Part shown: positions 27,325 to 51,830 of the stretch, one piece after another
How the letters are laid out: each line of letters begins with the position of its first letter
Numbering within the stretch: the first letter of the stretch is position 1
Source: Eledone cirrhosa
Taxonomy: Eukaryota
Direction: 5' to 3'
Length of the DNA: 64,000 nucleotides
Assembly: GCA_964016885.1 (NCBI GenBank)
Contig: OZ024745.1
Span: forward strand, 89,590,001 to 89,654,000
Made by a program: the position numbers and the translations under genes
Notes under the pieces: model-generated
What the model saw: the letters and a program-made list of their open reading frames with translations, nothing else
Told to the model about the DNA's origin: nothing
The model's database searches: none

Positions 27325-27381
27325 ATACTATGATCATTTCAATGACCGGGTTCCGTATGAACCGGTGATATCATCAGGTAT
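27325..27381 (-). ncRNA. type I hammerhead, family I
   Basis: ATAC-CTGATGA-TATCACCGG..CCGGTCATT-GAAA-TGATCA-TA-GTAT. Confidence 0.8.
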
Positions 27382-27788
27382 TCGAAATATAATAAATGAA
27401 TGTAATAGATAAAATCCATGGGGCTGAAAATCAAAGACCGGAGTACGACCGACATCTAGCATCTTCCACTTTTGCCGGTCGCCCGCAGTGAGGGGGCTAA
27501 AGCTTATAGTGTGCTACTACCGGTCAAATAGAGGAAAACAGAAAGGGAGAGGAAGATAAGTCAGCATTAATATCATGCCACAAGAAAAAAGACAGAAAGA
27601 AGGGGGAAGAAATGGAAGAAAAGGAAGAAGAAGAAAAGTCAGGGTTAATGTCGAGCTACACGAAGAAAGACAAAAATAAAGAGGAAGGAAGGTCGGTTCT
27701 AATGTCAAACGCGAATGGCGCGAAACAAATGTATTCTATGGAACGCGTGTCTTAACAGAGGTAAAAATAGTGGGGAGTCTGCATGTTA

Positions 27789-27970
27789 TAATTGTTTCTA
27801 CTTTAGGCACAAGGCCAGCAAATACCTAGTGCATTACTGGTACTTTATTTTATCGACCCCGTAAGGATGAAAGGCAAAGTCAACCTCGGCGGGATTTGAA
27901 CTCAGATCGTAAAGGGACATAACTATGCTAGAAAGCATGGTGTCCGACCCTCTACCAACACTGCCAATCC
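27789..27970 (-). mobile_element. tRNA-derived SINE (octopod-like)
   Basis: A/B boxes; central GCCTTTCATCCTTACGGGGTCGATAAAATAAAGTACC; five copies in the window. Confidence 0.85.
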
Positions 27971-29783
27971 AGAATATTGGAACGTTACATTTTTGTTTAG
28001 ATTTATATGATGAAGTTAAAAAATTAATATTTAATAATAACATTATAAAATTAAAGAAATTAGAAAATTGAAAGTTAAACAGTTTAACATTTTTAAGGTT
28101 TTGGTTGCGTAGTTTAAGCAAAGAAAGAGTATTTTATGAAGAAACTTAAATTGTATTATAGAGTAAAGATTATGTCTTTGTTTAGCAGTCAAACAGGATG
28201 CAGCGACTACAGGCTTACGCAGCCCATCTTAACCGCGTGTCAGCCACTCCGAGTGAGATCGCCTAGCGAAAGATATGGAAATCAATTTTTCCGAGCACTT
28301 TAGGAATGTATAACAGGGTTCAGGTGCGCCAGCGGGAAGTCAGCCACCATCGTTAGGCCATCCTTGTACAAAACCAGTACTATTAATTTACCCAGGAGGG
28401 AGATTTGCTTAAGTAGAGGGAGGCGTGAAACATCTAATAGTTATTATTAGATCTGTAATTTAAAGGTACGACATGGCAGTCAAAAAACCGGCTGCGCGCC
28501 GGGCCCTTGGGGCGAATCCATCCGCTCCGAGTAGTTTCATTTACCGAAAGAAGGGAAAATGTACTTTTCCAAGCACTCAAGGTAGGCCTATGCGCCAGGA
28601 GGCCGGTCCCACCGCCAGGAAAACCAACCCAACAGTCCGACAGAAAATTGGAACGTTAAATTATTGTTTAGATGTATAGGATGAAGTTGAAAAAATTTCA
28701 GAATAACATTATAAAATTAAAGAGTAAGAAGATTGAGAATTGAACAATTAGAAAATTGAAAATTAAACCGTTTAAAACTTTTTTAACGTTTTGGGTTGCG
28801 AGGTTTAGTTAAAGAGAGAGTCTTTTATGAAGAAACTTTAATTGTATTATATAGATCCTCTATAAGTTATCCTAGTGGGATGTAGAGTAAGGGATATAGT
28901 CGGGTAATATTTATTTTTGTTCTCAGGGGGAGACAATCTAGTGTCGTGTGCTAATGGGTACACGCGAGTAAAAGTCCGAATAACAGGAGTAAAAAATACA
29001 TGGATCTATAAAAGTTGAATACGTGGAAAAAGTACATTAATACAGCAAAGGTAGAAAGATATAAATAAACAAACAAGAGTGGTCGTGGAGTAAATGGAGA
29101 AATCAAAATACATGAGAAATACAATATAGTTCAAGTTGCAGTCAGATAATGCATATAGATATGGAAATGGAATCAGTGTGTGTTCGAGTCTGAGAATTCA
29201 GTGTGAGTTACACAGGCCCTGAAGTATAGGGTAGAGAATTTAGTCAATACAGTACAGTACAATACAGGTTATGGTATAATCCGTAGTATTTCGTCGAAGT
29301 CTGAATATTCGGAGAGGGAAGTAGCATTGGGCCAGGTGGGTGGTGGGCAAAGCACCGAGTAGCCAAAATCCGAATTGTGGTTAGATATATTCAGTCCCAT
29401 GCCGCTGTTCATTATTACATTTTGAAGTGCTCAACATTTCAGGAGGATTATTTATTCAGGTTTGAGATTCACCACTGGATAGAGCTGGTCAATTCCGTAT
29501 GGTCAATCTTAATGTAATAATATGGAGAGTACTCAACGTAAAGCAGTTCAACCGTCTGAAATGATCATAGTATAATAAACCTTTCAAGGATTTACACACA
29601 TATATATATATATATAAAAGAAAAGTTTGCTCTACATGGCTGAATACAATAAATGTAATCTGAGGTTTTCGAATATCAATAATAACATTCGATTCGTATG
29701 CTATTATGCAAACAAGCCTCAATTTTATAGCCATGTCAGTAGAATGAACACTTTATTCTTGCTCTTGTGTTGGCATGCTAACA

Positions 29784-29833
29784 GAACTGCAGACACTGAT
29801 GTTTCTGGGTATCACCCTTCATCAGTACAGCTC
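29784..29833 (-). ncRNA. type I hammerhead, family G
   Basis: GAGCTGTA-CTGATGA-AGGGTGATACCCA-GAAA-CATCAGTG-TC-TGCAGTTC. Confidence 0.88.
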
Positions 29834-48647: not shown

Positions 48648-48738
48648 GATACCTGGACAAATTTAAAATTTAAAATTAAAAATTTGTTTCGCAACAATTA
48701 TGTGAATGTTCCTATTCCTGTGCTCTTCTGCAGCTATC
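48648..48738 (-). ncRNA. type I hammerhead, family Q (core CAGAAGA)
   Basis: As above, with expanded loop III. Confidence 0.75.
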
Positions 48739-49250
48739 CAGAAATTGGTAAGTTTCACTTCAAAATACTTATGAAGACTGAGAGAAATGTGTTGTTGAAC
48801 GCACATGTGTCGCAGCGCCTAGCACGTTCCATACTTGTGCTGCTAAAAATAGCAGCCGGTTTTATGGGACTAAAAATTAGCTCAACGTATGGAGCCGAGA
48901 ATATTATATATAGAGTTATAAACTCAAATAGTTTTTTACAATTAAATAGCTCAAAGAAAGGAATATTTCTGAGCCGTGTAATACAAATGAATATATGATA
49001 GGGATAATCACTGATACAAGTATACATGTGTTTGTATTACAAATGACCAAGTTAGCTAGATTGAAAAATACTAATTAAAATAATACGGTTTGCTTGTCTC
49101 GATTTAGAATAATAAATCAATAAAAACAAACCTATATTGGCAATAACCGCACGAGTATGGAACGTGCTAGGCGCTGCGACACATGTGCGTTCAACAACAC
49201 ATTTCTCTCAGTCTTCTTAAGTATTTTGAAGTGAAACTTACCAATTTCTG

Positions 49251-49334
49251 GATACCTGCAGAAGAGCACAGGAATAGGAACATTCACTTAATTGTTGCGA
49301 AACAAATTTTAAATTTTAAAATTGTCCAGGTATC
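49251..49334 (+). ncRNA. type I hammerhead, family Q, in the fold-back arm
   Basis: GATACCTG-CAGAAGA-GCAC..TTGC-GAAA-CAA..TTG-TC-CAGGTATC. Confidence 0.78.
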
Positions 49335-49660
49335 ACGGCTATTGCCAATATATGTTTGTTTTTATTGATTTATTATTTTAAATCGAGACAGGCAAACCGT
49401 ATTATTTTAATTAGTATTTGTTCAATCTAGCTAACTTGGTCATTTACAATGCAAACACATTTATACTTGTATCAGTGTTTATCCCTATCATATATTCATT
49501 TGCATTACACGGCTCAGAAATTCCTTTCTTTGAGCTATTTAATTGTAAAAGACTATTTAAGTTTATAACTCTCTCTCTCTGACTCTCTCTCTCTCTCTCT
49601 CTCTATATATATATATATATATATATATATATATATATATATATATATATATATATATAT

Positions 49661-51830
49661 AAATGCAATAGTCAATAGTGTTCAAATACGCTTAACTAGA
49701 TTATCCGCTAACAAATCCATTTTTGATGAACAAGCTGGATATTATAACGAGGCGTTGCATAAGGCAGGATATAAAAATAATATTGAATATATAGATAATA
49801 CTAATTCGAATTATAAATTAGGTAAAAATACAAATAACATAAATAAAGCGGACTCTAAAAATTATTGAAATATAAATAAAAATACTAATTTCGTGAATAA
49901 ATCTCGGAAAAAAATCAGAACCAAATCAGTTATTTGGTATGCACCTCCCGCGGCTTTAGCTATCAAAAACACCCCTAGCACAATTATTTTTTAAGACATT
50001 AGATAATTGCTTTCCCAGAACACATAAGTACCATTCCATATTCAATAGACACACAATTAAGCTATCTTATTCTACAACTATGAATATAGCTCAGAACATT
50101 GCAGAAATAAATAGTAGAATTCTTAGTCATAACCAACAAACAATTAGGGATAATGACAATATTAACATTAGCAATAATATTGATACTGTGAATAACAATA
50201 ACATTAATTTAAGCACTCACATTAGAACACCTGCAAGTATTATCAATGATAACGTGTACAGTTTAAATTATAGTAATAACAGTAAATCGAAATGTAACTG
50301 TAGAAATGAATCGAATTGTCCTCTACAAAATAATTGTCTTGATAAGAAACTAGTTTATAAATGTACCGTTAACGCAAATAACATCACCTACAACTATATA
50401 GGTGCAGCTTCATCGAGTTTTAAATTACGATTTTCTAATCACAAACACTCTTTTTCGAATCCGGATGAGAAATTCTCTACCTCTTTATCACAACTTATAT
50501 GGTCGTTAAAAGACAAACTTTTAAAATACTCAATATTTTGGTCCAAACTTTGTAATAGTCAAGTCTACTTACATTCCTCGATCGCTTCTAACTGCAATCT
50601 TTGCAATATGGAGACCCTATTAATAATTATTAATAATTATGATAATTTAATTAACAAAAAAAGGGAATTATTTTCAAATTGCTTGCACAAAGCTGCATCT
50701 ACATTCCAAGGTTCACAAAAAACCAGGAAAAAACATTGAATAAACGTGAAATGATTTAGACGTTTATTAATAATTCCGAGCGTGAAACGATATTGTCTCA
50801 GATTAAAAATTCTTGTAATGCTTTTATTATTTATGCTATTATTAATATTGGATTAAGGGTTTCTACCTAAACATAGAAACTGTTAACCTGATCTCTTGTT
50901 GAGTATGTATGACCTTTAGAGTGTTTAAATATTTAATTTTGTTTTTTGTATTTTTTAAATCTTATATCTTATATATTTGATAGATCTCGTAAACCGTTTG
51001 ATTACTTTAAATGTTTGTTTATGATTCACGAGGATATGATTGTTGATTATATTTTTTATTTTAATATAATTTTAAATATACTTTAGAATACTTTTGGAGT
51101 TATGATAGACATTTATCTCTTTTACGTTACATTTGCTTTAACTCTGACATAATACATAATATAAATCCTTTCAAATTTTATAGTCTAAAATCTCATGTCA
51201 TTTGATTAATTGACTATTTCTAATTAACTTAAGATTTGAAATTAAATGGTCACGCATCATATGCCTAGATATTCTTCCTCCCTATCTAATTATACGCTAT
51301 TTATACGTTATCATTCATATCTTCCTCTCTTTGTTTATACTATTAAACTTATTTTCATTTCTTCCCTCTATCCATTGATCACCCCTCACTATCTCATATA
51401 TCTCCCTTTTTTATGTTCCTACGATCAAATCTCTTTCTTTTCTTCTCTCTTTCCTCGTGATTAGCTTTCTCGATCTCTCGCTTCCTCTATCTGCAATAAT
51501 GTGGTATGCATATCTTATTATTTAAATGTTTAACAGTTATGTAAGTTTATGTATTATATATTATTAGTTATTTATTATTATATATATTTATAAACATTCT
51601 CATACGTACCCTCTGTATTATATGTAATTTTCATGTTTTCAACTTAAGGTTTATAAATATTGAGTTTTGTCATGACTGAATTATAACCATCAACATAGTC
51701 AAGGTATGTCAGGCATCAACTTATTTTATCTGATGAGGACGTACTGTTGAAATAGCTCAGTACTTCTGAAATATGTATAATAAAATATATTTGATCACAT
51801 GAATGACTATATTTATTAATATTTTGAAGT
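49661..51830 (+). mobile_element. 5'-truncated Penelope-like element with ~1.1 kb 3' region ending in a HHR
   Basis: Decayed RT end (RLTRLS...Y.EAL..AGY, IWYAPP) plus ORF 50080-50739 with CNCRN...CPL..NCL...LVYKC...YIG...FK.RF.NH..SF...CNLC..E. Confidence 0.9.
51722..51787 (+). ncRNA. type I hammerhead, family A-related
   Basis: TATTTTAT-CTGATGA-GGACGTACTG..CAGTACTTCT-GAAA-TATGTA-TA-ATAAAATA; stem II covaries with other family A copies. Confidence 0.9.

Follow-up and report, generated by a model that had tools for sequence, protein, structure and literature searches.

Here we describe a recurrent mismatch in predicted hammerhead ribozymes of Eledone cirrhosa, found in a stretch of 64,000 nucleotides of its genome (contig OZ024745.1, positions 89,590,001 to 89,654,000; the window in what follows) and in further stretches picked by position. 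Pair 4 of stem II, formed by positions 10.4 and 11.4, is mispaired in most of these motifs, usually as two opposing cytosines. The motifs lie in Penelope-like elements (PLEs). Both the ribozyme class and the retroelement clade are known; what is lineage-specific is the mismatch, which the comparison of related copies suggests is kept by selection. A full-text literature search, which covered text and not figures, returned no published description of a pair 4 mismatch.

The counts were obtained from an unbiased sample of 1,064,000 bases, consisting of the window plus 100 segments, each 10 kb long; loci L001-L020 and loci fetched by pattern were excluded. The detector required the hammerhead core, an 8-nt palindrome and stem I, and ignored stem II. 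It reported 64 hammerhead motifs in the unselected DNA and 0, 0 and 1 in three shuffles. Stem II pairs 1 to 8 were mispaired in 17, 1, 3, 56, 4, 10, 8 and 25 of these 64 motifs, the copies not being independent of each other. The original prediction had proposed a 1x1 mismatch at position 4; pair 4 is indeed mispaired far more often than pairs 2, 3 and 5. It was C.C in 36 motifs, C.U in 11, A.C in 5, U.C in 3 and U.U in one, and closed as C-G in 7 and as G-C in one, with a cytosine present in 55 of the 56 mismatches. The first pair, also said to be mispaired in several families, was U.U in 8 motifs, A.A in 4, A.C in 4 and C.A in one. This feature has already been published as U10.1-U11.1 (PMC3088659, PMC7229834), and File S2 of PMC8557442 shows a first-pair U.U in 14 of its 26 Hydra rows.

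No Rfam hammerhead reached the gathering score in the window, and the motifs were therefore located by script. Below that score, HH9 was matched solely by 42709-42780 (36.5 vs 52 bits) among the 150 of 203 Rfam matches listed. The mismatch was found in all of families A, B, E, F, I and O, for which it had been proposed. Its positions are given below, along with counter-examples and other parts of the window:

27329..27377, minus strand: family I hammerhead, core to N17; C.C at 27367/27344, U.U first pair, palindrome AUGAUCAU
31093..31138, plus strand: family A copy, decayed (U4C core); C.A at 31103/31123
31714..31780, minus strand: counter-example, 8-nt-palindrome hammerhead with pair 4 C-G, inverted partner of 32698
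32698..32764, plus strand: counter-example, 8-nt-palindrome hammerhead with pair 4 C-G
33169..33215, plus strand: family A hammerhead; C.C at 33179/33200
34729..34794, plus strand: family E hammerhead; C.U at 34739/34779
39663..39708, minus strand: family A hammerhead, inverted partner of 39851; C.C at 39698/39678
39851..39896, plus strand: family A hammerhead; C.C at 39861/39881
40685..40749, plus strand: family F hammerhead; A.C at 40695/40734
42140..42204, plus strand: family F hammerhead; C.C at 42150/42189, U.U first pair
42727..42757, plus strand: counter-example, short-stem-II hammerhead with 6-nt palindrome and pair 4 G-C
43174..43219, minus strand: family B2 hammerhead; C.C at 43209/43189
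46316..46360, plus strand: family B hammerhead; C.C at 46326/46345
46835..46956, plus strand: family O hammerhead, found by homology; C.C at 46845/46941, loop II broken by an insertion of about 60 nt
49259..49326, plus strand: family Q satellite, hammerhead-like motif with U4A core (CAGAAGA) and long stem III; excluded
49960..50739, plus strand: Penelope-like open reading frame (ORF) remnant, endonuclease end, owner of the 51730 hammerhead and in the mismatch branch
51730..51779, plus strand: GGAC-family hammerhead (GGA-C/U-UCU); C.U at 51740/51764
2336..2384, minus strand: family A copy outside the range of the original prediction; A.C at 2374/2351

Hammerheads with a paired position 4 had been passed over, namely those at 32698 (plus strand) and 31780 (minus strand) with C-G, the one at 42727 (plus strand) with G-C, and most of a 10-nt-palindrome class, in which three of the four copies detected in the window are paired at this position. 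Family Q, named as a probable member, had to be rejected, its predicted fold being without a 1x1 loop at pair 4. Its motif is present in each 489-bp unit of the satellite at 47493-49330, the last copy being inverted. At 46842-46917, the loop insertion of family O starts with an inverted copy of sequence found upstream of the ribozyme in L276. An AAUAAA or AUUAAA hexamer lies within about 15 nt after the predicted cut in most families (46361-46372, 33216-33228, 27316-27328).

In the 3.0-Gb assembly, the core pattern without a stem II condition gave 58,528 matches, compared to 73 for the reversed control, and in 51,454 of these matches 10.4 is C while 11.4 and 11.1 are both pyrimidines. The closed C-G form amounts to 278 copies, scattered over many family backgrounds among the 100 matches listed. 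C.A was found in 2,697 matches, about 78 of the 100 listed belonging to one subfamily as counted by eye, and the U.C group comprises 2,935 matches, with U.C at pair 4 in 27 of the first 30. U.U gave 678 matches including mis-registered ones, with only scattered mutants among the 100 listed. A purine at 10.4 gave 3,056 matches, many of which are another family in false register, and no amplified branch family was seen among the matches listed. C.C, C.U, C.A and U.C have each been amplified. Diverged copies that keep a mismatch (A.C, C.A) are present, as had been pointed out, but taken as single copies they are weak evidence because four of the six point changes from C.C still give a mismatch. 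Some 2,900 hammerheads (L283-L312) combine a branched, 60-nt stem II and U.C at pair 4 with a first position that is mostly mispaired.

With regard to the ribozyme class, the core elements CUGANGA, GAAA and UH are present in type I order. Stem I pairs 1-3 are formed in 20 of 20 family representatives, a result partly imposed by the detector; stem II pairs 2, 3, 5 and 6 covary, and stem III is an 8-nt palindrome. The representatives had been chosen by their mismatch, which makes the pair 4 column (0 of 20) circular, and the remaining columns were used. As type I hammerheads whose stem III is self-complementary, the motifs have a build that acts as a dimer (PMC4209133), and self-cleavage is predicted from their sequence. 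A register with an extra base after A9 gave a poorer fit than the direct one. A U3-A8 core was noted in L017, L116 and L042, and C.C or U.U at pair 5 instead of pair 4 in paired-group families at L017:3101 (plus strand), L116:662 (minus strand) and L131:1539 (minus strand).

These hammerheads resemble the minimal PLE hammerheads of Cervera and de la Pena (2014, PMC4209133), which are likewise dimer-type, type I ribozymes with a long helix II and a short palindromic helix III, occurring in many families per genome and in mostly truncated copies. The palindromic stem III and the location in the pseudo-long terminal repeat (pLTR) of a PLE were both found here. In contrast, the published consensus, with the extra base after A9 and G10.1-C11.1, does not describe our motifs, only 13 of 64 of which begin stem II with G-C. 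Of the 56 published sequences, 2 have a 1x1 mismatch at pair 4 (C.A in S. purpuratus 1 and U.U in C. sinensis 2, by eye), which passes unremarked in the portions of that paper drawn on here. The canonical type I hammerhead of Schistosoma Sm-alpha (PMC3088659, PMC11875169, PMC6155905) shares the core sequence and the three-helix junction. However, its stem II has four pairs and is closed by a docking loop, whereas here the helix runs past the open pair 4 and no conserved loop-loop partner is found.

The host elements are Penelope-like elements that, judged by their predicted protein motifs, match the Hydra clade as described in PMC8557442; a first label, Neptune, was dropped once the Hydra motifs had been checked. 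The open frame at L249, of 821 codons, contains RWT at 58 and DKT at 144 in the N-terminal part of the reverse transcriptase and YRDD at 378, followed by a CxCx5C linker at 680, CxxC at 780 and CxH at 808, and it is without CCHH between two GIY-YIG half-motifs. The L243 ORF encodes RWK. Pfam matched GIY-YIG weakly (E 0.004) and solely on a fragment of the paired group, with no match on L249. The hammerheads lie about 0.9-2.0 kb past the end of the retroelement ORF (0.5 kb in one copy), often as inverted pairs; about 44-60 nt beyond the predicted cut, the copies terminate in (TA)n. Insertion into (TA)n, a trait of the Hydra clade, was thus found as well. The tandem at L243 has a 4.4-kb unit with a hammerhead at each end and long 3' untranslated regions, which exceeds the Hydra-clade norm of less than 3 kb. 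Its ORF starts about 300 nt downstream of the ribozyme, and a coding constraint on the mismatch was rejected for this reason. Families F, I and O and the U.C group yielded no ORF; family F occurs in tandem units of about 1.3 kb (L361:2438-7699; L313-L342). A protein search returned six relatives at 35-40% identity, and a metagenome pattern scan gave 52 matches, none with both stems, which are chance matches.

The Hydra-clade hammerheads (Craig et al. 2021, PMC8557442) are also of type I, lie at the 3' end of an element with a C-terminal endonuclease that inserts into (TA)n, and have a palindromic stem III, a frequent first-pair U.U, often C at 10.4 and no fixed extra base after A9. They differ in that position 4 is paired in 25 of the 26 rows, as C-G in 16, the remaining row having a three-pair stem (by eye). 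Moreover, they have short stems II and palindromes of 8-10 nt, compared to the long stem II, 8-nt palindrome and open pair 4 of the motifs described here. The descriptor search used in that study could miss mismatched stems.

The families sharing the mismatch had been considered unrelated, which is not borne out. All 13 mismatch copies linked to an ORF (E, B, B2, F1, GGAC and A subfamilies) form one branch of the ORF tree, with a Shimodaira-Hasegawa-like approximate likelihood ratio test (SH-aLRT) value of 98, and the five ORF-linked copies with a paired position 4 all lie outside it. Families A, B and E thus fall into one branch, while families F and I, together with the U.C group, share a tail motif with it; family O was not placeable. 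As all 13 linked mismatch copies are in one branch, the recurrence of the mismatch reflects descent from one ancestor and not convergence, and its history was likely one loss of G11.4. A first tree, calculated with FastTree, contained 70 ORF pieces; chance neighbours were then removed after comparing the DNA, and the final quick tree contains 27 of the 70 rows, several of them less than half filled. The ORFs linked to L021, L168 and L267 turned out to be chance neighbours and were removed, as were the links of L041 and L024 since an F1-type hammerhead or remnant of their own lay nearer the ORF than the hammerhead first linked.

The tail motif is an ACUCY...GAGUGCU-like hairpin, starting 51-71 nt past the palindrome and just beyond the usual insertion end (e.g. 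L249, L246, L285, L314). It is present in 11 of 15 mismatch patterns and in 0 of 9 paired patterns, and is missing from family O and three single-copy patterns. It is a candidate landing site for the reverse transcriptase (RT). Pairing of C10.4 with this motif was considered and rejected, the two being complementary in family A only. Looser CUCUG...GAG versions of the tail were seen in two paired families.

The same tree argues for selection on the open pair. ORFs within the mismatch branch are about 39-76% identical. Each side of pairs 2, 3, 5 and 6 changed two to five times, yet the pairing is retained in 12-13 of the 13 tips; position 10.4 changes once and 11.4 four times, and pair 4 is closed in none of the 13 tips. 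The mismatch had been interpreted as a structural or tertiary-contact element. It is position-specific and behaves as if selected. For a tertiary RNA contact, which is possible, no conserved partner was found.

The influence of the mismatch on the fold was assessed by structure prediction. The predicted probability of stem II pair 3 has a median of 0.36 for the sequences as found, 0.99 when pair 4 is closed in silico and 0.97 in the paired families. The three basal pairs are thus predicted to be left marginal. The median predicted stem II energy is -9.5 vs -15.2 kcal/mol for the closed form, a cost of about 6 kcal/mol. In one explanation, which we regard as unlikely, the mismatch merely weakens stem II as a brake, and templates stay uncut until they are copied. 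In addition to the lost stem II energy, the extension of genomic copies beyond the cut site agrees with such a brake, as does an extra A.A at pair 3 in 15 of 30 family F loci, which leaves a single basal pair in a family that was amplified all the same. However, a brake explains neither the fixed position nor the need for C, and among the matches listed neither U.U nor purine-purine combinations characterised an amplified family. It is further tempered by the predicted cost of reaching the active secondary structure, which hardly differs between the two groups of families (medians of 4.0 vs 4.1 kcal/mol). In a variant for some families, the freed 3' strand would pair with core positions G5-A9 and switch the ribozyme off. 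Of the 20 families, 6 permit this off-register pairing in full and 14 do not, and it was rejected as a general explanation.

A close rival to the reading that we favour below is an RNA-only docking site or hinge, in which the mismatch would stand in for loop 2, accept either a metal ion or an A-/U-rich segment of stem I, and thereby enhance cleavage at low Mg2+. This is possible, if on balance unlikely. In canonical hammerheads loop 2 begins at pair 4, and U1.7 touches the last loop base (PMC11875169); in the families studied here, stem I past pair 5 is often unpaired and A-rich, and two long-stem families of the paired group have C.C or U.U at pair 5 (G19, G38). On the other hand, stem I varies from 4 to 8 pairs and contains no conserved or covarying partner in the 20 representatives. 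For the loop 1/loop 2 contacts of the canonical extended hammerhead, no stem I base is conserved beyond pairing, with A at 1.6 and U at 1.7 each present in 12 of 20. Fully paired long stems II also occur in sister families here (G13, G46), and nearly all of the published minimal hammerheads in the portions of the sources used here have them.

We tentatively favour, with less than even confidence, that the mismatch is a shape site which makes the folding of stem II depend on the element's own RT-endonuclease protein. The open pair at 10.4/11.4 would leave the basal stem II pairs marginal, the protein would bind and complete the fold, and the ribozyme would be off by default until the protein arrives, with dimers presumably formed through the 8-nt palindrome. 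Since the copies in the genome extend across the cut site, the template RNA was probably uncut or rejoined there, and a ribozyme that is off by default is therefore favoured. There is a precedent in the Anolis Poseidon (PAc) hammerhead, which depends for its cleavage on added protein of the element (Frangieh et al. 2024, PMC11167929). Taken together with the lack of a conserved stem I base and the copies running through the cut site, this precedent favours a site read by protein. The Anolis ribozyme likewise lies in the pLTR and has an optional tail, and the start of reverse transcription is downstream of its cut. It differs in belonging to another clade and in that its ORF begins inside the ribozyme; in the sections of that paper drawn on here, a stem II mismatch is not discussed.

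Several observations weigh against selection on the mismatch or against a protein that reads it. The protein-binding region of Anolis Poseidon is downstream of the ribozyme, and cleavage is dispensable for insertion in vitro (PMC11167929). Five tolerated mismatch types are loose for a base-specific read-out by protein, and the tail motif may accompany the mismatch merely because both are shared derived traits. Sister families with C-G at pair 4 have spread too, and a small sub-lineage within the U.C group (L056 and a few further matches) has a paired position 4. Furthermore, every observed pair 4 state is one step from C.C, and C-to-G mutants are rare (about 0.5% of copies). As closing C.C needs this rare transversion, its persistence is partly mutational. 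Together with the single origin, and with C10.4 being common in paired families too and in 16 of 26 published Hydra rows (PMC8557442), the last points would fit a frozen accident, in which one ancestor lost G11.4 and the mismatch was never repaired. We consider this improbable, as the least likely of the explanations weighed here. In the same tree, neighbouring pairs made double changes including transversions (U-A, A-U and G-C at pair 3), pair 1 toggles between paired and unpaired whereas pair 4 does not, and U.U, the expected sink in an A+T-rich genome, is not amplified among the matches listed.

The window is otherwise rich in microsatellites and broken retroelements. Among the latter are what we take to be two broken two-ORF elements resembling long interspersed nuclear elements, RT fragments and a Helitron-like stretch (15112-20132, 21266-26609, 36710-37978, 44548-45681 and 62010-63605). 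Two near-identical tRNA-like sequences at 9277-9345 (plus strand) and 33607-33677 (minus strand) are possibly heads of short interspersed nuclear elements.

Overall, the mismatch bears on what the hammerheads of Penelope elements do and why they cleave poorly alone (PMC4209133, PMC8557442, PMC11167929, as far as these sources were drawn on). It also reveals an abundant hammerhead class that Rfam models miss. With at least 50,000 copies in many families and with paired sister families as controls, it provides a natural experiment that comes down to a one-base test. If stem II is completed by contact with protein, the mismatch would pinpoint how a retroelement protein assists its ribozyme; if RNA docking is correct, it would represent a new route to a stem I/II contact with long helices. 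At its most far-reaching, and here we are doubtful, the open cytosine pair may be a lineage-specific switch by which a retrotransposon protein controls its ribozyme, with stem II and the tail hairpin acting as one ribonucleoprotein element that would couple self-cleavage to the start of reverse transcription.

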